Shown here piece by piece: positions 5,394-28,819 of a stretch of DNA of 64,000 bases. Position 1 is the stretch's first letter. Every line of letters begins with the position of its first letter. The notes under the pieces were generated by a model that was not told the DNA's origin, made no database searches, and was given only the letters and a program-made list of their open reading frames with translations. This stretch comes from an uncultured Thermodesulfovibrio sp. (lineage in GTDB: Bacteria; Nitrospirota; Thermodesulfovibrionia; Thermodesulfovibrionales; JdFR-85). Position numbers and translations under genes: made by a program. The stretch lies in contig CAZITN010000001.1 of the NCBI GenBank assembly GCA_964542175.1, forward strand, positions 8,891 through 72,890. Direction: 5' to 3'.

Positions 5394-5459
5394 TGTTTTT
5401 GACCTCAACATTGCATGAACACAAGGTTCGGCAGGGGATCAATATATACAACAGGAAGA

Positions 5460-6464
5460 TCAACATATCCTCGGAAGAAGTTCCCCTGAAGGGGGTTCCA
5501 GTATCCTCCTGGTCCCGTAGGAACTCCTGAGCAGGACCCTTGCCCTCTCACCGGAGATTACCCTTCCTGCAACCCTGGCGTCCTTTCCGAGAGCGTCACT
5601 CTGCAGGATTTCAATAAATGCATCCGCGTCATCTTCAGGAAGGGCTGCAATGAACCTTCCCTCTGAGGCAAGCTGTAATGGGTCCATGCCGAGGAGTTCA
5701 CAGATGCCCTTCACTGCATTCTTGAGAGGGATGAACTCCTCATCCATCTCTATCTCAACACCAGAGGCCGCGGCCCACTCATTCAGGACTGCTGCCAGCC
5801 CCCCCCTTGTGGGGTCTCGCATGGCGTGAATGTCAGGACTGATTTCAATTACCTTCTGAATCACCGGCCAGAGGGACGCACAGTCGCTCTCAAGATCGAG
5901 ATCAAACCCCAGTCCTTCCCTTTCAGCAAGAATGCAGGCACCGTGATCTCCCATGGTCCCTGACACGATGATGACATCACCCGGTGAGACTCTGGAGGAG
6001 GAGAGGCCTTCCCTCTCAATCCTGCCGATACCGGCCGTGTTTATGACAATGCCGTTCATGCTGCCCCTCGGCATGATCTTTGTGTCACCAGTCACCACGG
6101 CAACACCTGTCTTGGCCGCCTCCTCACTCATGCTCTGGACGATGATACTGAGGTCTTTAAGGGAGAACCCCTCCTCTATGACAAATCCTGCCGAGAGATA
6201 GAGGGGCCTTGCCCCTGTAACGGAGAGGTCGTTTACAGTCCCGGCAACAGAGAGTTTTCCGATGTTTCCACCCCTGAAGAAGGAGGGGGATACAGTAAAG
6301 GAATCGGTGGTGAAGGCGACTTTGCCATCAATGCGGGGGAGGACAGCCGAGTCTTCCAGGGAGTCAAGGACAGGGTTTGAAAGATATCGCCTGAAGATGC
6401 CCTCTATCAGCTCCCTGCTCTCTTCGCCGCCTCCGCCATGGGCAAGAAGGATGGTTCCCTTCAT
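5460..6464 (-). CDS. hypE: hydrogenase expression/formation protein HypE
   Basis: PurM-like fold and N-terminus LAHGGGG. The canonical C-terminal PRIC motif is present. Confidence 0.95.
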   Translation of the reverse strand: MKGTILLAHGGGGEESRELIEGIFRRYLSNPVLDSLEDSAVLPRIDGKVAFTTDSFTVSPSFFRGGNIGKLSVAGTVNDLSVTGARPLYLSAGFVIEEGFSLKDLSIIVQSMSEEAAKTGVAVVTGDTKIMPRGSMNGIVINTAGIGRIEREGLSSSRVSPGDVIIVSGTMGDHGACILAEREGLGFDLDLESDCASLWPVIQKVIEISPDIHAMRDPTRGGLAAVLNEWAAASGVEIEMDEEFIPLKNAVKGICELLGMDPLQLASEGRFIAALPEDDADAFIEILQSDALGKDARVAGRVISGERARVLLRSSYGTRRILEPPSGELLPRIC

Positions 6465-8417: not shown

Positions 8418-9671
8418 CTAATCACTGATCGTATATACACCTGAATCGTCAAACCCCACACTGGCAAGAAGGCACTTGACTCTATATCCGGCTTTGAGAA
8501 GGATGTAATAGCCTATTTTTGCGCGTATGCCGCTTATGCAGTGGGTGATAATCTCCTTTTTCCTGTCAATCTCATCGAGCCTGAAAGGAAGCTGGTCCAG
8601 GGGAAAATTCACTGCCCCTGGAAAGTGCCCTTTCTCATACTCATCCTGGTCACGGACATCTATAATGAGGAGATTCCCCGGGTTGTCACCAAGATATTTC
8701 CTGAATCTCTCAAGAGGAACAGTATTACTCGCATAAATCCTCTTGTATTTTATCTCCGTGGAAATATCTCCCTTTTGTATTTCAAATCCATTGCTTGTGT
8801 ATGCCTTGATCCCTCCTTTGAGTATCATTGTATGTGGGTATCTCCAGAAGGCTATTGTGCTGGCGGCCTGGACTGCACGCAGATCATTATCATCGTTACC
8901 GTAAACGACGATGGTGGCCTCCTTGTATGTGGGGAACCTGTAACCTGCATACTCAACTATGCCTGCAGGAATATTTACGGCACCCGGGATAAAACCTCCT
9001 TTTGTCTCTTCTCTGTCACGGATGTCCACTATAACCACTGGATCACCCAACTGGATTTTCCTCTTCAATTCAACCGGTGATATTTCAAGAGGGTTTTTGC
9101 TCTCTACCCATCCCTTTATGCCTTCCTGATAAAAAAAGATGTTTTTGTCTGAGAACTTGTTGAGAAAGGATGTTTCTTCCTTGCTGTCACATCTTTCAGA
9201 ACTGCAGTAGAAGATAAAACCTTCACTGGTGCCTTTACCTGAGAACTCCTTGAAATGGACAGCTCCCGGTATATGGCCTTCCATGAACTTCTGTTCAGAC
9301 CTGATGTCTACGAGGAGGGTCCCCTTATCAAGTTCTTTCTTTAACTCATCATCTGACAATGGGGTTATGTTCTTTCTGTGGAATACAGGTCTTGCTGTTA
9401 TAAAATCTGCAAGAAAGATGACTTGATCCCTTCTGCCTTCGACAGTAATGAGCATGTCCCTTTCTATTGCTGTCTCATCTGTCAGGTTCAGAAACTTCGT
9501 CCCTTCCGAGTATGATACTATCTCCACCCCTTTGTCCGTTTTCAGGGCGAACATTCCGGCCCTTTTTGAATGCACATCTACCACGCCTGTTATTACTTCG
9601 GAAAAGGCAACGGCAAAGAGAAGAATGGTGAACAGGAATGTGAAAATAAAAGTTAATGCCTTATGCCTCAT
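8418..9671 (-). CDS. secreted multi-rhodanese-domain protein (three rhodanese repeats; last has catalytic CxxGxR loop)
   Basis: Signal peptide MRHKALTFIFTFLFTILLFAVAFS. Three repeats are marked by HIPGAVHF, FIPGAVNIP and HFPGAVNFP. The active loop is HCISGIRA in repeat 3. Confidence 0.8.
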   Translation of the reverse strand: MRHKALTFIFTFLFTILLFAVAFSEVITGVVDVHSKRAGMFALKTDKGVEIVSYSEGTKFLNLTDETAIERDMLITVEGRRDQVIFLADFITARPVFHRKNITPLSDDELKKELDKGTLLVDIRSEQKFMEGHIPGAVHFKEFSGKGTSEGFIFYCSSERCDSKEETSFLNKFSDKNIFFYQEGIKGWVESKNPLEISPVELKRKIQLGDPVVIVDIRDREETKGGFIPGAVNIPAGIVEYAGYRFPTYKEATIVVYGNDDNDLRAVQAASTIAFWRYPHTMILKGGIKAYTSNGFEIQKGDISTEIKYKRIYASNTVPLERFRKYLGDNPGNLLIIDVRDQDEYEKGHFPGAVNFPLDQLPFRLDEIDRKKEIITHCISGIRAKIGYYILLKAGYRVKCLLASVGFDDSGVYTISD

Positions 9672-9697: not shown

Positions 9698-9958
9698 TTA
9701 GGACCTGAGAGCTTCTCTTATCTCATTATCAGAAAAGCCGACTATTACCTTCTCTCCACCATTGATTACAAGGGTCGGAAATGTCTCTCTCGGGTTGAAA
9801 CGGCGGACCTCCTGAAGGAGTTTGTCCCTGGATTCCCGGTCAATCGTATCCAGGTCTATTGTCAGTGCTTCAACTCCGAGTTTCTGCAGCAGTTTCTTGG
9901 TCTTCTTGCACGCCGGGCAGGTGCTCAGGGCAAAAAGTACGATCTTTTTTTCACTCAT
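9698..9958 (-). CDS. glutaredoxin-like / NrdH-like thioredoxin-fold protein
   Basis: 86 aa. CPAC redox motif near the N-terminus (LSTCPACKKTKKLL) and a cis-Pro region TFPTLVING. Confidence 0.8.
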   Translation of the reverse strand: MSEKKIVLFALSTCPACKKTKKLLQKLGVEALTIDLDTIDRESRDKLLQEVRRFNPRETFPTLVINGGEKVIVGFSDNEIREALRS

Positions 9959-10022
9959 ATGATAAAGGTTCCTTTCGTGTCAGTGTTTCCGCTACTTGTC
10001 TTTTGTTACTTTATATTTTATC

Positions 10023-10592
10023 CTATCTAACGAGCCTTTTTCCTGCCTCATAAGCCTCACTGAGGGCGGTGGGATGCCCTTTGATGGCACCCTGGGCGTC
10101 AATCTCCTTGAAATAAAGGGTCTCGTGCTCAGGGACGTTTATCGTCCTGAAAAAGGCCGTAGCCGTGGCTCCGCCACAGTCGAATCCCACCTGTCTCTTC
10201 ATGCCGCCGACCATCAGGAGAAGCCCCTTCCTCCCGTAAGGACCGGGCTCTATGGGTTTTTTCAGAAGATACTTTTCACACCAGAAGGACTGGCATCTGT
10301 CGATAACCGTCTTTATCTGAGCGGAAAGGCTGAAAAAGAATATGGGAGAGGCGAGTATGACCCTGTCAGCATCACGGATAGCCTTGTAGATATCGTTCAT
10401 CTCATCATCTATGACACATTTCCCTGTCTCATCACAGCCGCCGCAGTTCAGACAGGGGGAGATATTCATGACTGATGGGCGGAAGAGGATCACCTTGTGA
10501 CCCCCTTCTGCAACAGCCCTGGTTGACTCGTTCAGGAGCAGTTCCGTATTCCCGGCCACTCTCGGACTTCCAAGTAATGCTACTACCTTCAT
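10023..10592 (-). CDS. iron-sulfur flavoprotein (Isf) / FMN reductase family, second paralog
   Basis: MKVVALLGSPRVAGNT and Cys cluster CLNCGGCDETGKC. Start set at ATG 10592 with AAGGAG 5 nt upstream; the track start is a GTG 2 codons earlier. Confidence 0.8.
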   Translation of the reverse strand: MKVVALLGSPRVAGNTELLLNESTRAVAEGGHKVILFRPSVMNISPCLNCGGCDETGKCVIDDEMNDIYKAIRDADRVILASPIFFFSLSAQIKTVIDRCQSFWCEKYLLKKPIEPGPYGRKGLLLMVGGMKRQVGFDCGGATATAFFRTINVPEHETLYFKEIDAQGAIKGHPTALSEAYEAGKRLVR

Positions 10593-10708
10593 TGTCACTC
10601 CTTGTCATATTAAAGGTGAACTCCCATTCGTGACAGTTCCACCAACATGAAAGAGATCTGCCGCCTTCAGGCGCCTGGCTGAGATATCATTCCAAAGGGA
10701 AAGATGAT

Positions 10709-11203
10709 CTAATCAATCCTGCTGAACATCTCCCTCTTTGCACCGCAGACCGGACAGGTTTCAGGTGCCTCACCCTCCACAGTATTGCCGCATACCTGGC
10801 AGACGTAGTAGTCAACATCCTCATTACTGCCCAGGTTTTCAAGGGCCTTCCTGTAGAGGTCTGCGTGGATTTTCTCCACCTCATTGGCAAAGTTGAAGCT
10901 CCTGAGGGCACCTTCATTACCCTCGGATTTTGCATCCTCGATCATCCGTGGATACATCTTCTGGAACTCATATGATTCGCCGTTGATCGCCTTCTCGAGG
11001 TTTTCCCTTGTGCTTTTGATTCCTCCCAGTTCCCTGAGATGGTTATGGGCATGGATGGTCTCTGCCTCTGCGGCTGCCCTGAAGAGTTTTGCCACCTGGG
11101 GGTAGCCCTCCTCATCGGCCTTCTTTGCAAAGGCAAGGTACTTCCTGTTTGCCTGTGATTCACCGGCAAAGGCATCCTGAAGATTCTTCTCTGTTTTGGA
11201 CAT
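10709..11203 (-). CDS. rbr: rubrerythrin
   Basis: Diiron four-helix-bundle ExxH motifs plus a C-terminal rubredoxin-like CQVCG...CPVCG. Confidence 0.93.
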   Translation of the reverse strand: MSKTEKNLQDAFAGESQANRKYLAFAKKADEEGYPQVAKLFRAAAEAETIHAHNHLRELGGIKSTRENLEKAINGESYEFQKMYPRMIEDAKSEGNEGALRSFNFANEVEKIHADLYRKALENLGSNEDVDYYVCQVCGNTVEGEAPETCPVCGAKREMFSRID

Positions 11204-11574: not shown

Positions 11575-12030
11575 TCAGGTTTGTGACACAGTTACCTGGA
11601 CTGGCTCGCTTATCCAGGTCCCGTGAAGATTACAATGTTCAATCGCTTCAAGCCTTCCAGACTTTTTAAGTCTTATCCTGAATACCGCCTCGGATGGAGA
11701 CATTCCACCTATATAATGCTTTTCCTTTGCCACCTTCTGACCGTCTACAAGCAGTTGTATCTTTGTTATCCAGTGCTCAGGCGTAGAGGGATGCTCTTTC
11801 ATGAAGCCTACCCGGACTTTTATATCAAACCATTCATTTGCCTTTATCCCGGAAGGCACATCTACCTTTGGGACGTGTTTCTGCTCAAGAACGGTAGGGT
11901 TTGACCTATTAGTCAGCCTGTTCAGTTTCCCGGACCTTGATTTTCCACGTTCAGAAGCCGGCGTCCCTCCAGCAGTTAATATACCTGCCAATACCAGAGG
12001 AATTGTTTTCATAAAATCGCGTCTTTTCAT
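11575..12030 (-). CDS. Tat-signal superoxide reductase-like protein (desulfoferrodoxin ferrous-iron-binding domain)
   Basis: Twin-arginine leader MKRRDFMKTIPLVLAGILTAGG. SOR ligand motifs are EQKHVP, HPSTPEHWI and HCNLHGTW. Confidence 0.8.
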   Translation of the reverse strand: MKRRDFMKTIPLVLAGILTAGGTPASERGKSRSGKLNRLTNRSNPTVLEQKHVPKVDVPSGIKANEWFDIKVRVGFMKEHPSTPEHWITKIQLLVDGQKVAKEKHYIGGMSPSEAVFRIRLKKSGRLEAIEHCNLHGTWISEPVQVTVSQT

Positions 12031-12782: not shown

Positions 12783-12836
12783 TGGTCATTCTTGAAAGAG
12801 GGGACAGGTGCAGCCTGCTGCACCTGTCCCTGCTGT

Positions 12837-13454
12837 CTACTGCAATGCCTCGTAAACCTTGCCTACGAGATCAGCCGATGGTTTCAGTGTCTTGTCTCCC
12901 TCATCGTTCCACTGGGCAGGGCAACCCTCGTCAGCATGCTTTGAGAGGTGAAGGTTCGCCTTGAACTTTCTCATGAGTTCGTCAATATTCCGGCCCATGT
13001 TATAATAATTGACTTCAGAGTTCATAATCGTGCCTTCAGGGCTTATTATGAAGGTGCCCCTCAATGCAAGGCCTGTCTCTTCGTCATATACCCCGAACAT
13101 GCTGGAAACATTCCCGGTAGGGTCGGCTCCCATGGGATACTTGACCTTCTCGAGAAGTTTCTCCTCCCTCTGCCACGCAAGATGAACGAACTGCGTGTCG
13201 GTGCTGACAGTGACCACCTCGGCTCCCATTTTCTTGAAACGGTCATACTGCTCTGCCAGAGCAGCAAATTCCGTTGCTCAGACAAAGGTAAAATCTGCCG
13301 GATAGAAGAAGAGTATTGTCCACTTACCGGCCTTTTTTGCCTTCTTCAGAGAGAACTTGCCAAAATCTCCCTTGGTTGGCTCATAGGTGTCCAGTTCAAA
13401 GTCCGGAACCTTCTGTCCAACCCTCAGCCCGCAACAGATCTCTTCATAGTTCAT
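12837..13454 (-). CDS. 2-Cys peroxiredoxin (AhpC/Prx1 type) with in-frame UGA at the peroxidatic position; putative selenoprotein (205 aa)
   Basis: ATG 13454 has an SD GGAGGAAG. The N-terminus ends ...WTILFFYPADFTFV-TGA(13278-13280)-ATEFAALAEQYDRFKKMGAEV, in frame with track ORF 12837..13229. The resolving-Cys motif EGCPAQW is present. Confidence 0.75.
13246..13266 (-). promoter_or_regulatory. candidate bacterial SECIS hairpin for the Prx UGA
   Basis: The mRNA reads UGCUGCUCU-GGC-AGAGCAGUA (7 WC pairs, plus G-U and U-A). It starts 11 nt after the UGA and has a G-containing apical loop. Confidence 0.55.
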
Positions 13455-13525
13455 GACAGTCTTCCTCCTTTAGAATGTTTTGGCTCATCCTTACGGATGA
13501 AATTCACAGGCACAACAGGCGCAGT

Positions 13526-13900
13526 TCATTCAGTCACCGTAATCTCCTTGCTTGCCTCCCAAGTGCCGTGAAGATTGCACCTTTCAAGCACCCTCAGTGT
13601 AGATGTTCTATGCTTACCACCTTTGACAAGAGTAATAGTCACTTCAGGCTGTGCAAATACAGGAGTGAGGTCAATCCTTGCATAAAGGTTCTGGCCGGAG
13701 TAAAGTTCGATCCACTGGATATGGTGTCCCTCTTCATTGGGATGGGGAATCTCTCCCACTTTGATCTTGACCTGAAAGGGCTCGCCTGCCTTTACAGTGT
13801 CTGGGCACTCAATAACAGGTGTGTGCTTCTGTTCAAGCGCTGTCTTGTTTGCCGGGTCTGCTGCCCTGTTGATTCCACAAAATAAACTCTTCTCTGACAT
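13526..13900 (-). CDS. 1Fe superoxide reductase (neelaredoxin-type SOR)
   Basis: 124 aa. Motifs EQKHTPVIE, HPNEEGHHIQWIEL and CNLHGTW. There is no N-terminal Dx domain. SD is AAGGAGGTG. Confidence 0.88.
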   Translation of the reverse strand: MSEKSLFCGINRAADPANKTALEQKHTPVIECPDTVKAGEPFQVKIKVGEIPHPNEEGHHIQWIELYSGQNLYARIDLTPVFAQPEVTITLVKGGKHRTSTLRVLERCNLHGTWEASKEITVTE

Positions 13901-14046: not shown

Positions 14047-14526
14047 CTACCCAATCCTCTCGAATTCAGCCTTGGACGCATTGCACACAGGGCACTTCCA
14101 GTCATCAGGTAATTCATTAAAAGGAGTGCCTTCAGCATCTTCCTTGTAGAGCCATTTACACATTGCACACCGCCAGAGAATCCCATCTTCCCGGTCTCCC
14201 TCTTTTTCAACCACCTCCCATCCTTTTTTCTCCCACTCTTCGACCGGAGGAGGGAGATAGCCTGAATATATCTCTTTGTCCCTTGCATCTTCAACCTTCA
14301 CAACTACTGTTATCCCATCTTTCTTAACAGTGTATCCCCAGTCAAAATTATCCTCTGTATCAGGTGCGGTCAGTTTTGCAGAAAACTCTATAGTATCTCC
14401 CTTTCTTTTCACCTTTGACCAGGAATAACAACACTTAGCAACGGATGTGCATCCACACTTTCCCTTTTTCAACTCAAGCCCGTCAATACTGAACCCACCG
14501 GGTATCTTCTCTACCTTTACTCCCAC
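14047..14526 (-). CDS. fusion protein: unknown ~115-aa N-terminal domain + C-terminal rubredoxin domain
   Basis: The C-terminus WRCAMCKWLYKEDAEGTPFNELPDDWKCPVCNASKAEFE is a rubredoxin. The N-terminal domain, including CGCTSVAKCC, is not recognised. Start set at GTG 14526 with GGAGGA 4 nt upstream. Confidence 0.7.
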   Translation of the reverse strand: MGVKVEKIPGGFSIDGLELKKGKCGCTSVAKCCYSWSKVKRKGDTIEFSAKLTAPDTEDNFDWGYTVKKDGITVVVKVEDARDKEIYSGYLPPPVEEWEKKGWEVVEKEGDREDGILWRCAMCKWLYKEDAEGTPFNELPDDWKCPVCNASKAEFERIG

Positions 14527-14617
14527 ATGGTCCTCCAAAATCGGATAAAACAAGTCTTAAAATCCCGGATTAAAGAGGCCAGGATGAACCTGACCTTCTT
14601 TCAGTCCTTACCCCATA

Positions 14618-14761: not shown

Positions 14762-15979
14762 TTAATTAAAATTTTCATGATACTCCTTGACAGCCCTGGC
14801 AAACTCTCTTCCGAAGTCATAGCACTTTTTCTCATCCTCATCAGAAGGGCGGTACTGGATCTGTATGCCAGGCTCCATCACATCCAGTTTCATATTCTGA
14901 AATTCATTGTAAAGCCACTTGACTGCGCCTCCACCCCAGCCGTAACTACCGAAGGCACCGGCTATCCTGTTTGTAGGCCTGAGCCCCCGAAGGTGTGTCA
15001 TGAATTCAGCCACCGAGGGGAAGACCTCGTTGTTGAGGGTAGGGGAGCCTACGAGGATTCCCCTTGACTTCCAGAACTCCTTGATGGCAACACTCATAGG
15101 GGTCGCCCTCAACTTGATCACCTTGCAGTCCACCCCCTCGTCCTTGATCCCCTGCATTATTGGTTGTGTCATTATTTCGGTGCTGTGCCACATTGTATCG
15201 TAGATGATCGCCACCCTGAGGCTTGCCTTGCCATCTGCCATTTCAAGATACATCTCAACGGGTCTCATGGGTTCCTTCCGCCAGATTATCCCGTGATCAG
15301 GGGCTATCATGTCTATCTCTAGGCCAAGCTCCTGGATCTGCTTTATCTTGCTCTTGATAAGCCTCCCGAAGGGCATCAGTATGTTTGCATAATAGTCAAT
15401 CACGGAATCTTCAAGTTCTGCATGGGAAGCACATTCGATAAATTCATCATCAAACCGTGCAGTAGTTGCCAGATGTTGGCCAAAGGCATCTTGGGATATG
15501 AGCAGCCTGGCCTCTTTCACATAGGTCATCATGCTGTCCGGCCAGTGGAGCATGGGTGTCTCGATAAACTGGAGTGTATACCTGCCGATAGTGAGTTCAT
15601 CGCCAGTCCTGACCACCTTGATGTTCCACCTTGAAATATCAAAAAACCTCTCCATCCCCTGCTTCCCCCGTGCAGTGGTATAAATGGTTGCCTGGGGCAT
15701 CAAGTCCATGAAGATACCGAGTGCCCCCATGTGGTCGTTTTCCACATGATTCACTATCAAGTTTTTTATCCTTGAAAAGTCCACGAGGCTTTTCACATTG
15801 GCCAGTCCGATCTCCGCAAAGTCGTGTTTTACAGTGTCAACAAGAGTGATCTCATCGTCGAGTATAAGATAGTTGTTATAGGTCGTTCCATGGGGAGTGA
15901 CATACCCGTGGAAATCCCTTACAGCCCAGTCAATCGCTCCAACCCAGTAGATACCGTCTTTGATTTCAATAGCCTTCAT
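14762..15979 (-). CDS. flavodiiron protein (FprA / rubredoxin:oxygen oxidoreductase type)
   Basis: Metallo-beta-lactamase-like N-domain with HVENDH, and a flavodoxin-like C-domain. SD is GGAGGT. Confidence 0.92.
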   Translation of the reverse strand: MKAIEIKDGIYWVGAIDWAVRDFHGYVTPHGTTYNNYLILDDEITLVDTVKHDFAEIGLANVKSLVDFSRIKNLIVNHVENDHMGALGIFMDLMPQATIYTTARGKQGMERFFDISRWNIKVVRTGDELTIGRYTLQFIETPMLHWPDSMMTYVKEARLLISQDAFGQHLATTARFDDEFIECASHAELEDSVIDYYANILMPFGRLIKSKIKQIQELGLEIDMIAPDHGIIWRKEPMRPVEMYLEMADGKASLRVAIIYDTMWHSTEIMTQPIMQGIKDEGVDCKVIKLRATPMSVAIKEFWKSRGILVGSPTLNNEVFPSVAEFMTHLRGLRPTNRIAGAFGSYGWGGGAVKWLYNEFQNMKLDVMEPGIQIQYRPSDEDEKKCYDFGREFARAVKEYHENFN

Positions 15980-16100: not shown

Positions 16101-16592
16101 TCAGCCCTCCACTATGCTCAACTCTTCCCACATGAACCAGTTGCCGGTATCCTCAAGAAAACTGTAGGTGTTGTTCAGCAACTGATAGTGCCTCTCCTCC
16201 TCTTTGATGAGCACCTCGAAGAGCCTTTTCTCCTTTTCATCTACAGCCGCCGCAAGAGCCTCCTCGTAAAAATGAAACCCCTTCTTTTCCATCTCAAGGG
16301 CGAGCCGTAGAGCCTCTTTCTCATCTGATCTTGCCTCTATACGGCTCATCATCTGGTCCTTCAGATCTGAAAAGACTGTCCTTACATCACCGATACACTG
16401 GACATGAGGATCTATCTCAAGACCCTTCAGTATCTCCTCAAGCAGTCTCAGGTGCCGTGCCTCATCCCTTATCAGGCTCTCGAACATCTTCCTGCCCATA
16501 GGGTGGGAGGTCCTTGAAGCTGCCTCTTTATAAAATTTCATTGCATCCGTTTCCATCTTCATCGCTGATTCCACTGCCTTTGAGACTGCCAT
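16101..16592 (-). CDS. ferritin-like diiron protein (rubrerythrin family, no rubredoxin domain)
   Basis: Two ExxH pairs (EARHLRLLEE, EERHYQLL). SD is GAGGAGGT. Confidence 0.75.
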   Translation of the reverse strand: MAVSKAVESAMKMETDAMKFYKEAASRTSHPMGRKMFESLIRDEARHLRLLEEILKGLEIDPHVQCIGDVRTVFSDLKDQMMSRIEARSDEKEALRLALEMEKKGFHFYEEALAAAVDEKEKRLFEVLIKEEERHYQLLNNTYSFLEDTGNWFMWEELSIVEG

Positions 16593-17434: not shown

Positions 17435-17836
17435 TCATTCACCTCCTTTCTTGCATTTTTCACATATACCATAGAATTCGATATGGTTTCCCAGGACATC
17501 AAAACTCTTCCTTGCCTCGTCCGGAATGAGAATCTCGAAATCCAGATCTACATCAACTATGGTCTTGCATCTCAGACAGATAAGGTGATTATGTGGATGA
17601 ATATTAGGATCGTATCTCTTCCTGTCCGGGTCAATGGTGAGTTCCAGTATCTGTCCCCTTTTCCTCAATGTCTCCAGGGTGTTGTAGACCGTTGCAAAGG
17701 ACATTGTAGGAAACTTCTCCTTTACTGAACTGTATATATCCTCTGCCGATGGGTGTGATGTATTGCCATCAAGATATTCAAGTATCGCAAGCCTCTGGGG
17801 TGTAAGTTTGAGTCCTATTTCACGATACCTTTCCAT
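17435..17836 (-). CDS. Fur family transcriptional regulator (PerR-like by context)
   Basis: Winged-helix N-terminus (LTPQRLAILEYL). HHH-type metal site (HPHNHLIC) and CxxC pairs (CLRC...CEKC). SD is AAGGAG. Confidence 0.85.
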   Translation of the reverse strand: MERYREIGLKLTPQRLAILEYLDGNTSHPSAEDIYSSVKEKFPTMSFATVYNTLETLRKRGQILELTIDPDRKRYDPNIHPHNHLICLRCKTIVDVDLDFEILIPDEARKSFDVLGNHIEFYGICEKCKKGGE

Positions 17837-26933: not shown

Positions 26934-27771
26934 GTTCTTCCTCCCCAAGGTAGGATTTAGGGTTGACGGGCTTCTTGTCGAGCCAGACCTCGTAGTGTAC
27001 GTGGGGGCCCGTTGAATTGCCTGTGGAGCCTACAAAGGAGATGATCTCACCCCTGTGGACCTTCTGGCCCACCTTGACGAGTATCTTCTTGTTGTGGGCA
27101 TAGGCTGTGGTGTACCCGAAACCATGCTCTATTACTACAAGCCTTCCACTCCCTCCGGACCATCCGGCAAAACTTACTATCCCGTCTGCCGTAGCCCTTA
27201 CAGGGGTACCAGGCCAGGCGGCAATGTCCACTCCGGAGTGAAAATCTCTCCTGCCGGTTTTGGGATGCTTTCTCCACCCAAAGGTTGAGCTTATGTAGCC
27301 GTTGTCCACAGGAAATCCTTTTGGTGTAGCGAAGTAGATGTCCCTCTCCTGACGCAGATAGTCCCTGATTTCTCCAACAGTATCCATCGTCTTTTCTATC
27401 TGTTTCTTCAGGACCTCCATATCAAGGGAGCCTGTGTCGGATATGTCCAGATTTTCCAGAATCTCTTCCCTCTTGTTTAATGCAAACAGTCGTTTGAAGT
27501 CTGACTCTGCCTTCTTCAGAGAAAGCAGTGTGTTGCGGAGATCGGCAAAGCGGGAACGGTAAAAATCAAGTTGCTCCGAAACCTCCTGGTACTTTTTTGT
27601 CGTCACACCCGTGGAGACAAGATAAATCGATGCAGAAAGCCAGAGTATGAAGATAAGTATGATGCCGATTGAAGGAAGCCTGATGCTTATGGGTCTCTTC
27701 TGTGTATGGGGTATGAACATTATGGTGACAGGAGTGAAAAGACGACGGATGAATTTCTTAATCCTGTACAT
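26911..27771 (-). CDS. M23 family metallopeptidase (membrane anchored, coiled-coil)
   Basis: HxxxD (HSGVD) and HxH (GPHVHYEV) motifs. Start set at ATG 27771 with AAGGGGG upstream. Confidence 0.85.
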   Translation of the reverse strand: MYRIKKFIRRLFTPVTIMFIPHTQKRPISIRLPSIGIILIFILWLSASIYLVSTGVTTKKYQEVSEQLDFYRSRFADLRNTLLSLKKAESDFKRLFALNKREEILENLDISDTGSLDMEVLKKQIEKTMDTVGEIRDYLRQERDIYFATPKGFPVDNGYISSTFGWRKHPKTGRRDFHSGVDIAAWPGTPVRATADGIVSFAGWSGGSGRLVVIEHGFGYTTAYAHNKKILVKVGQKVHRGEIISFVGSTGNSTGPHVHYEVWLDKKPVNPKSYLGEEEHVQQKVR

Positions 27772-28819
27772 ATACAACCCCCTTTCCACCTTTATTTATA
27801 ACTCCAATAATGGATGACTCGTAACCTGACTCTTTGAGTATGTGTATGGAGCTGTCTGCATCCGTTTCAGGAACTATTATAATATACCCTATTCCAAGAT
27901 TAAAGGTCCTCTCCATCTCTACAAACTCCACTTTCCCGAGATCCCTGATGAGTTCGAATACAGGGAGCCGGGGAAGGGAATTCCTGGAAATCTCGGCCCG
28001 GCACCCCTCCGGGAGAATCCTTGAGAGGTTTCCTGATATGCCTCCTCCTGTTATATGAGCCATACCCTTGAGATGTATACCCTCTCTCAGGAGTTCAAGC
28101 ACGCCTCTGACATAAATCCTTGTGGGTTCAAGAAGCTCTTCGCCGAGGGACCTCCCCAGTTGCTCGACATGCTGGTCTATCCTGAATTTGTGAATCTCAA
28201 AAAAGAGCTTTCTGACAAGGGAGAAGCCATTGCTGTGAAGCCCCCCTGATCTCAGACCGATAATCCGGTCTGATTCCGCTATCGCGGTTCCGTCAATTAT
28301 GGAGTTTCTGTTTACTGCACCAACGGCAAACCCCGAGAGGTCATACTCCCCGTCCGGGTAGAATCCCGGCATTTCGGCGGTCTCACCACCTATCAGGGCA
28401 CAGCCGGCATCCTTGCATCCTCTTGCTATACCCGATATGACATCTCTTGCTTTCTCTGCCGTAAGCCGTCCTGTTGCAAAGTAATCAAGGAAGAAGAGGG
28501 GCTCTGCACCAGAGGTAAGGATGTCGTTAACGCACATCGCCACAAGGTCGATTCCTACGGTATCATGCCTGTCAGCCATGAAGGCTATCTTGAGCTTTGT
28601 CCCTACTCCGTCAGTCCCGCTTACCAGAACTGGATCGTGATATCGGGCCGTGTCCAGGGAAAAGAGGCCACTGAAACCGCCTATGCCCGTAAGGACCTCC
28701 TTCCTGAAGGTCTCCTGAACCAGGGGGGAGATGAGTCCTACAAGCCTCTCTCCTTCTTTGATATCCACACCGGCATCCCTGTAGGTGAGTCCTTCAGACA
28801 TAACCCTATTATTTTGCAT
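27758..28819 (-). CDS. purM: phosphoribosylformylglycinamidine cyclo-ligase (AIR synthetase)
   Basis: YRDAGVDI N-terminus and DGVGTK motif. Confidence 0.93.
   Translation of the reverse strand: MQNNRVMSEGLTYRDAGVDIKEGERLVGLISPLVQETFRKEVLTGIGGFSGLFSLDTARYHDPVLVSGTDGVGTKLKIAFMADRHDTVGIDLVAMCVNDILTSGAEPLFFLDYFATGRLTAEKARDVISGIARGCKDAGCALIGGETAEMPGFYPDGEYDLSGFAVGAVNRNSIIDGTAIAESDRIIGLRSGGLHSNGFSLVRKLFFEIHKFRIDQHVEQLGRSLGEELLEPTRIYVRGVLELLREGIHLKGMAHITGGGISGNLSRILPEGCRAEISRNSLPRLPVFELIRDLGKVEFVEMERTFNLGIGYIIIVPETDADSSIHILKESGYESSIIGVINKGGKGVVYVQD

Follow-up and report, generated by a model that had tools for sequence, protein, structure and literature searches.

We analysed a 64-kb stretch of DNA, hereafter the window (the whole stretch, at its full length), and in it a peroxiredoxin (Prx) gene on the minus strand at 12837..13454. 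This locus very probably encodes one full-length, typical 2-Cys peroxiredoxin of the AhpC/Prx1 type. The product has 205 residues, and its peroxidatic residue would be selenocysteine (Sec, U59), read from an in-frame UGA codon. A first-pass annotation of the same DNA had proposed a selenocysteine Prx with a bacterial selenocysteine insertion sequence (SECIS). The proposal is supported by the conservation of the TGA, by purifying selection on both its sides, and by a covarying hairpin that is constrained specifically in the Sec forms. The elements of the gene are the following.

12837..13454, minus strand: selenoprotein gene of 205 codons, AhpC/Prx1-type 2-Cys peroxiredoxin, with ATG at 13454..13452, the Sec codon at position 59 and TAG at 12839..12837
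13461..13469, minus strand: Shine-Dalgarno-like AGGAGGAAG, 5' of ATG 13454, read from the sequence
13431..13436, minus strand: Cys7-Cys8 pair (codons 7-8) in the N-terminal extension; in alignment A1, C7 never varies and C8 is conserved to at least 90%
13278..13280, minus strand: UGA codon 59 at the peroxidatic position, in the motif PADFTFV-U-ATE (PxxxTxxU)
13247..13265, minus strand: conserved SECIS core, an 8-bp stem GCUGCUCU/AGAGCAGU with apical GGC, inside the codons for AALAEQ(Y)
12921..12923, minus strand: resolving Cys codon 178 (TGC) in EGCPAQW; C178 is invariant in alignment A1

The conceptual translation of the frame 13454..12837 presents one internal stop only, the TGA at 13280..13278 (codon 59). 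Translating these coordinates reproduced exactly the peptide that the first-pass annotation had given from ATG 13454, and the Shine-Dalgarno sequence that it reported was found at 13469..13461. In the mechanical list of open reading frames (ORFs), the gene appears only as two fragments in the same frame, 13278..13454 (58 amino acids, aa) and 12837..13229 (130 aa). It was indeed hidden as a truncated ORF. Apart from the single in-frame TGA, the AhpC-TSA domain is intact, and the statement that there are no other lesions holds.

For the profile and structure searches of the 205-aa product, Cys was substituted for U59 in the query. The product matches Pfam AhpC-TSA (PF00578) over residues 12-144 with 133.2 bits, against a cut-off of 26 bits (E 6e-39). 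Redoxin is the second Pfam profile matched. The best solved relatives are the bacterial AhpC structures 1we0 (E 1e-47), 1yep and 4o5r. In the alignment with 1we0, FYPADFTFV-x-ATE lies over FYPADFSFVCPTE (FYPADFSFVC), and EGCPAQW lies over the resolving-Cys motif EVCPAKW. Because this alignment places codon 59 there, the TGA is exactly in the peroxidatic-Cys column, as had been claimed, and the resolving-Cys motif EGCPAQW is intact. The wider active-site block FYPxDFTFVCPTE, also claimed, stands in part. Its Cys column is the TGA, but the proline that should follow is replaced by alanine at residue 60 (codon 13275-13277), which gives UATE in place of CPTE. The product shows both the PxxxTxxC motif (PADFTFV-U59) and the C-terminal VCP-type resolving Cys (EGC178PAQW) of a typical 2-Cys Prx.

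The scores against two NCBIfam equivalogs stay under their thresholds. They are 210.1 bits for AhpC (TIGR03137, cut-off 272 bits) and 193.5 bits for PrxU (NF040737, peroxi_PrxU, cut-off 270 bits). Judged by these cut-offs, the gene is an orthologue of neither PrxU nor AhpC. Like AhpC (1we0 and the others), the window Prx has a typical 2-Cys architecture, and the two can be aligned at both active-site motifs, the resolving Cys in VCPxxW among them. Unlike AhpC, it has a predicted Sec and carries a Cys-Cys pair in an N-terminal extension, and AhpF is not encoded nearby. The Cys7-Cys8 pair is kept in most family members, Sec and Cys forms alike, and is absent from the Sec forms P0064 and P0085. 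The best solved AhpC aligns with the query from residue 12 on only, that is, past this pair.

We made a genome scan with one genome per species and a separate metagenome scan. The genome scan returned 69 loci. The homologous codon is TGA in 63 of them, and the next residues are ATE in 62 of these 63. Likewise, the metagenome scan gave 31 further TGA forms. With the window included, there are 93 distinct UATE sequences, and the inspection of the Cys/Sec column in homologues that the first-pass annotation had recommended finds TGA there in all 93. The record titles of the TGA loci name Nitrospirota/Thermodesulfovibrionia, Acidobacteriota, Deltaproteobacteria/Desulfobacterales, Candidatus Eisenbacteria and Krumholzibacteriia, at least five phyla. 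Full-length homologues of the Prx gene were found at 63 genome loci, with 88-96% identity in L001-L006. Other homologues present Cys (TGT/TGC) in the codon-59 position.

We also compared non-synonymous (dN) and synonymous (dS) divergence between the window and four relatives (L001, L002, L004, L006). In the 39 codons 5' of the TGA, dN is 0.011-0.085 and dS is about 1.0-1.8. The 120 codons 3' of the TGA show a pattern like the upstream part, with dN of 0.011-0.057. On either side of the TGA, the dN/dS ratio stays far under 1. With dN this low against dS on each side, both parts of the gene must be translated and under selection. An in-frame UGA at the redox Cys of the homologues, with both flanks conserved, is the mark of a bacterial selenoprotein, and it is what we observe here.

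One locus of the genome scan stands apart. L069 (10127) is a distant Prx (43% identity) whose peroxidatic column also holds TGA, but its motif is UPTE and its downstream sequence differs. This TGA is probably an independent acquisition of Sec with its own SECIS.

Next to the UGA, the window mRNA presents the hairpin UGCUGCUCU-GGC-AGAGCAGUA at 13266..13246. It has one U-A pair more than the conserved core, 9 bp in total. This form begins 11 nucleotides (nt) past the UGA, as had been reported, and the 8-bp core begins 12 nt past it. The minimum free energy (MFE) is -11.3 kcal/mol for the 21-nt form folded alone and -10.3 kcal/mol for the core. The published model of the bacterial SECIS (bSECIS; PMC13188914, Fig. 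2 legend) has a loop of 3-9 nt, an upper stem of 4-16 bp and at least one G in the first two loop positions. It also has a distance of 16-37 nt from UGA to loop and an MFE of -7.5 kcal/mol or lower. In the window, the loop is GGC (or U-GGC-A), the stem has 8-9 bp and the first loop positions are GG. The distance from UGA to loop is 20 nt, and the MFE is -10.3 to -11.3 kcal/mol. The hairpin lies within every limit of the model, and the bacterial SECIS geometry proposed earlier is the one found.

The comparison between homologues shows how strongly this element is conserved. Hairpin positions (+n) are numbered from the U of the UGA. The segment +15..+33 is GCUGCUCUGGCAGAGCAG(U/C) in 73 of the 93 Sec forms. 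A random choice of synonymous codons for AALAEQ would be expected to give the exact 18-nt core once in 1536. Without structure input, RNAalifold predicted a single helix, which has 8 bp (columns 16-23 with 27-34) and closes the GGC loop. The 8 core pairs are 98-100% paired among the Sec forms. In the 9-pair hairpin, outer pair included, 95.9% of the cells are paired. Its observed pairing and covariation score were matched by none of 500 shuffles, and slid registers pair at 13-62%.

Compensatory double changes are present at three pairs. At +19/+29, C-G becomes A-U in 6 sequences, and at +20/+28, U-A becomes C-G in 3. The pair +17/+31 changes from U-A to C-G in 3 sequences and to G-U in 1. Several of the compensatory changes alter the peptide, from AALAEQ to ADLADQ, AALAGQ or AALAER. 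Since they alter the protein, the conserved entity is the RNA structure, not the peptide. The synonymous sites agree. Within the hairpin, the third-codon-position entropy of the Sec forms is 0.40, 0.26, 0.00, 0.09, 0.43 and 0.09 bits, and in their flanking codons it is mostly 1.0-1.9 bits. At the hairpin sites of 59 Cys forms, it reaches 1.6-1.97 bits. By this measure, the synonymous sites of the predicted hairpin are almost frozen, and in the Sec forms only.

Like the bSECISearch consensus and the E. coli fdhF and fdnG elements, this is a stem-loop inside the ORF, immediately 3' of the UGA, with a small loop that begins with GG. Unlike the bacterial SECIS consensus, its primary sequence is specific to the family, and RNAalifold finds no conserved bulged U or lower stem. 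A lower stem AACGG/CCGUU, present in the window's own fold (13238-13275), was rejected: it is not conserved and is missing from the RNAalifold consensus. The set of 93 sequences is an unusually clean, covariation-supported bacterial SECIS and could seed a covariance model.

Some Cys relatives retain putative traces of the same element. We took the best 120 hits in a database of 5.8 billion proteins. They are full length, and their active site is CATE in 107, CPTE in 6, WATE in 4 and CSTE in 1. Among these best 120 hits, none is a close TGA-containing orthologue in the form of a full-length protein. The protein P0001 has a genuine TGT at the codon-59 position. Of the Cys forms among these hits, only 37 have AALAEQ as the six-residue block, and the others show many variants. 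Conversely, more than four-fifths of the 62 genome-scan Sec forms (window included) have AALAEQ, and the rest are mostly compensated variants. In Cys forms with the same peptide (L154, L155, L156 and L161), the codons have drifted.

More precisely, nine CATE forms whose DNA was recovered were scored against the 18-nt core. The number of matches is 18 in L070 (TGT) and L157 (TGC), 17 in L159, 16 in L155 and L156, 15 in L160 and L161, 14 in L154, and 13 in L078. The mean in 51 CPTE forms is 10.5. L070, L157 and L159 are close relatives, and their core is intact or has one wobble-preserving change. These intact hairpins beside a Cys codon are best read as putative fossil SECIS elements, left by a recent conversion from Sec to Cys.

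Some results weigh against a selenocysteine peroxiredoxin at this locus. First, folded as a single sequence, the 66-nt region gives z = -1.08, and 28 of 200 shuffles reach an equal or better fold. With shuffles folding comparably, a hairpin in one sequence is weak evidence alone, and it is the comparative data that carry the proof. Second, the outermost pair of the 9-bp stem (+14/+34) forms in 57% of the homologues only. The 9-bp stem proposed earlier is retained for its 8 core pairs, which are conserved and covary, but not for this outermost pair, and the conserved element is thus 13265..13247. Third, the Rfam SECIS models gave no SECIS match in 13150..13350, even under a permissive threshold (E <= 10). 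This search returned chance matches only, to one miRNA and one snoRNA family (E 3.4 and 6.9). The covariance-model check that the first-pass annotation had suggested was negative. This result fits the little sequence that bacterial SECIS elements share (PMC13188914).

Finally, no selA, selB, selC or selD was found in the 64-kb window, and its only tRNA is tRNA-Gly. The Rfam search of the whole window at gathering thresholds likewise returned tRNA-Gly only. No SelA-like or SelB-like ORF is present among the larger window ORFs scanned with Pfam, a scan that left about ten smaller ORFs aside. The window matches a 72-kb metagenome contig, and its host organism presumably has the Sec machinery, judging from relatives and the literature. 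In the same way, the actual incorporation of selenium at U59, and across the clade, is predicted from sequence.

Two AIR-synthase-like ORFs were considered as SelD and rejected. They are PurM (27758..28819) and HypE (5460..6464). We also searched the window for other selenoprotein genes, taking frames between TAA or TAG stops that span 120 codons or more and hold one or two TGAs. These were rejected by comparing their coordinates with the ORF list and the Pfam results: apart from the Prx, each candidate is antisense to a gene that is longer or has Pfam support, or is in another frame than such a gene.

A relative with TGA in its Prx (L011) has a tRNA-Sec at 5418-5515, 4.6 kb upstream of the Sec-Prx gene. 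It was called by ARAGORN and scores 71.4 bits with Rfam RF01852 (cut-off 47 bits). No sel genes are present beside this tRNA-Sec; its neighbours are a radical-SAM protein, lipopolysaccharide heptosyltransferases, RNase G and LarE. Nitrospirae are among the Sec-using lineages (PMC13188914, PMC1794560, PMC1088965). A 2026 review places them among the lineages with selC embedded in, or overlapping, selB (PMC13188914).

The absence of selABCD from the window would agree with a stranded relic. That is, the gene could be a true Sec-Prx by descent that became untranslatable when its host lost the Sec machinery. We consider this very improbable. The ORF is intact, and its SECIS core still matches the consensus exactly. 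Its relatives at 88-96% identity keep the UGA, and dN is very low upstream of the TGA, where dS is about 1. Moreover, the lineages that abandon Sec show a change from TGA to TGT or TGC (L070, L157, L159), not a stranded TGA.

A pseudogene is still less probable. An ordinary Cys Prx would have received a nonsense mutation from TGT or TGC to TGA, and the hairpin would be a coincidence of coding AALAEQ. It is true that a single substitution turns either Cys codon into TGA, that the single-sequence fold is not significant, and that gene callers handle the locus as two fragments. However, 93 distinct homologues from different phyla have TGA at this codon, and their identities of 60-96% exclude that they are copies of one contaminant. 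The gene has no further lesions, and selection is purifying on either side of the TGA (dN/dS far below 1). The first-pass annotation had named decay of the locus in close homologues as a sign against its proposal, and the close homologues compared show low dN on both sides of the TGA. A pseudogene would also leave unexplained the compensatory changes and the freezing of synonymous sites, which is confined to the hairpin and to TGA forms.

Just as improbable as the pseudogene is a UGA that is decoded, but not as Sec. This could happen through a reassigned code (Trp or Gly), near-cognate read-through or insertion of Cys. Some pipelines do show Trp at the homologous codon, in the four database proteins P0021, P0064, P0085 and P0096, noted together with the locus L158 (335-955). 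However, the DNA of P0064 has TGA at the Sec column, and its translation with table 11 differs from the database protein. The Trp entries are artefacts of gene callers, from a pipeline that read the TGA of a selenoprotein gene as Trp. In the window, TGA is the commonest ordinary stop codon and terminates 16 of the 37 ORFs that have 250 aa or more, so the genetic code is standard. A peroxidatic Trp or Gly would abolish catalysis, yet purifying selection is strong. The SECIS-type hairpin specific to Sec forms and the tRNA-Sec of the relative point to the Sec pathway.

A spurious TGA from a sequencing or assembly error has practically no chance of being the explanation, as the gene calls on 10 contigs, which come from several samples and several assemblers, include the identical 130-aa downstream product, and the TGA recurs in 93 distinct homologues. 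The conservation of the TGA, the selection on its two sides and the use of TGA as a normal stop together lead us to exclude the pseudogene, the sequencing error and the reassigned code.

A selenocysteine peroxiredoxin at this locus would be made and would work as follows. By the established bacterial Sec pathway, SelB·GTP·Sec-tRNA(Sec) would bind the hairpin GCUGCUCU-GGC-AGAGCAGU. The complex would bring Sec to the UGA in the A site, in competition with RF2, and the 146 remaining codons would then be translated. By the Prx mechanism and the alignment with AhpC, the selenolate of U59 would attack H2O2 or an organic hydroperoxide and become a selenenic acid. Cys178 of the partner subunit would resolve it to a selenenylsulfide. 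This bond would be reduced by a thiol reductant. Given that no AhpF is nearby and that the cluster has a glutaredoxin gene, a reductant of the thioredoxin or glutaredoxin type is probable. The usual rationale for Sec is its lower pKa and its resistance to irreversible over-oxidation (PMC13188914). This rationale fits a peroxide-defence cluster in an anaerobe.

The first-pass annotation had stated that Sec-containing peroxiredoxins are known. Sec-peroxiredoxins with TxxU are in fact an established, experimentally verified selenoprotein family (PMC13188914, PMC1794560, PMC1088965). Their prototype, as cited in PMC13188914, is PrxU of Eubacterium acidaminophilum (Söhling et al. 2001). Like the members of this family (PF00578), the window Prx has the AhpC/TSA fold and a predicted Sec for the peroxidatic Cys in PxxxTxxU. 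It also shares with them the SECIS inside the gene just past the UGA, the anaerobe hosts and the abundant Cys homologues (PMC1794560, PMC1088965, PMC13188914). Unlike PrxU, it belongs to a distinct UATE/CATE clade, with Ala for the canonical Pro. Members of this clade come mainly from Nitrospirota and Acidobacteriota, with some from Desulfobacterota. The window Prx is a fresh addition to a known selenoprotein family and a correction of its annotation. The current understanding of selenoproteins is unchanged by it.

To follow the Sec and Cys states, we aligned 250 homologues, built a neighbour-joining tree and applied parsimony. The sampling is biased, since the protein database can contribute Cys forms only. 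The tree groups 87 UATE, 108 CATE and 1 CSTE sequences in one clade, with all 51 CPTE forms outside. All Sec forms of this xATE family have Ala after the catalytic residue. Parsimony gives at least 18 changes between Sec and Cys within the UATE/CATE clade, with an ambiguous root state and direction. With parsimony ambiguous and the sampling biased, the direction of change rests on the fossil-SECIS cases only. Previous work on bacterial Prx lists 5 events from Cys to Sec and none from Sec to Cys (PMC1794560, Table 1), and changes from Sec to Cys are rare in bacteria (PMC13188914). The putative fossil SECIS cases suggest that reversions from Sec to Cys do occur in Prx, which is a modest addition to the literature.

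A wider reading is that the xATE peroxiredoxins were ancestrally Sec-dependent, across at least five phyla, and that the Cys forms arose by repeated reversion that left decaying fossil SECIS elements. We hold it tentatively, as somewhat less probable than its contrary. If true, it would contradict the published picture of changes from Cys to Sec only in bacterial Prx (PMC1794560). It would also contradict the rarity of changes from Sec to Cys in bacteria (PMC13188914). Likewise, the SECIS would dictate part of the protein (AALAEQ), with compensatory RNA changes dragging amino acid changes along. The clade, with Sec and Cys forms interleaved, offers a good case for studying why lineages retain Sec or give it up.

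The first-pass annotation had also expected automated annotation to miscall this locus, and public records agree. An identical JGI metagenome contig of 72,390 bp (3300009408, Ga0117756_1000115) has the locus called as two AhpC-TSA products, of 58 aa and 130 aa, and another pipeline read the UGA of a homologue as Trp. The sequence of L071 at 9776-10393 is the same as that of the window at 12837-13454. Because the gene is split in this way, is absent in full length from the best 120 protein hits and has its UGA read as Trp, the oversight of the Sec-Prx is systematic. An antioxidant selenoenzyme widespread in anaerobic Nitrospirota, Acidobacteriota and Desulfobacterota is being missed by annotation.

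The Prx gene belongs to a peroxide and superoxide defence cluster of an anaerobic Nitrospirota (Thermodesulfovibrionia-like) organism. It had been described as lying inside a large cluster for defence against reactive oxygen species, and the rubrerythrins, desulfoferrodoxin-domain proteins, flavodiiron protein and PerR-like regulator around it confirm this. The neighbouring features are the following.

17435..17836, minus strand: PerR-like regulator of the Fur family
16101..16592, minus strand: rubrerythrin
14762..15979, minus strand: flavodiiron protein
14047..14553, minus strand: rubredoxin-domain protein
13526..13900, minus strand: neelaredoxin-type superoxide reductase, directly upstream of the Prx
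12801..12830, minus strand: perfect 14-bp inverted repeat GGGACAGGUGCAGC-AG-GCUGCACCUGUCCC with a 2-nt centre, 6 nt past the Prx stop codon
12027..12782, minus strand: SagB/nitroreductase-family protein, downstream of the Prx
11575..12030, minus strand: second desulfoferrodoxin-domain protein (151 aa), downstream of the Prx
10709..11203, minus strand: rubrerythrin
10023..10598, minus strand: FMN reductase
9698..9958, minus strand: glutaredoxin
8418..9671, minus strand: triple-rhodanese protein

The PerR-like protein presumably regulates the gene. No AhpF was found in the Prx neighbourhood. Elsewhere, the window presents hypE/hypF, a PhsA-like molybdopterin oxidoreductase and housekeeping genes. 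The terminator scan downstream of the Prx gene called none, the 14-bp inverted repeat included. This repeat is followed by CUCUUUC, and its weak U-tract accounts for the lack of a call. It is a possible transcript-end or stabilising hairpin.

The SagB/nitroreductase gene and the desulfoferrodoxin-domain gene overlap by 4 nt, and in L071 a desulforedoxin-like ORF of 42 aa follows. These genes form an unusual trio directly downstream of the Prx.

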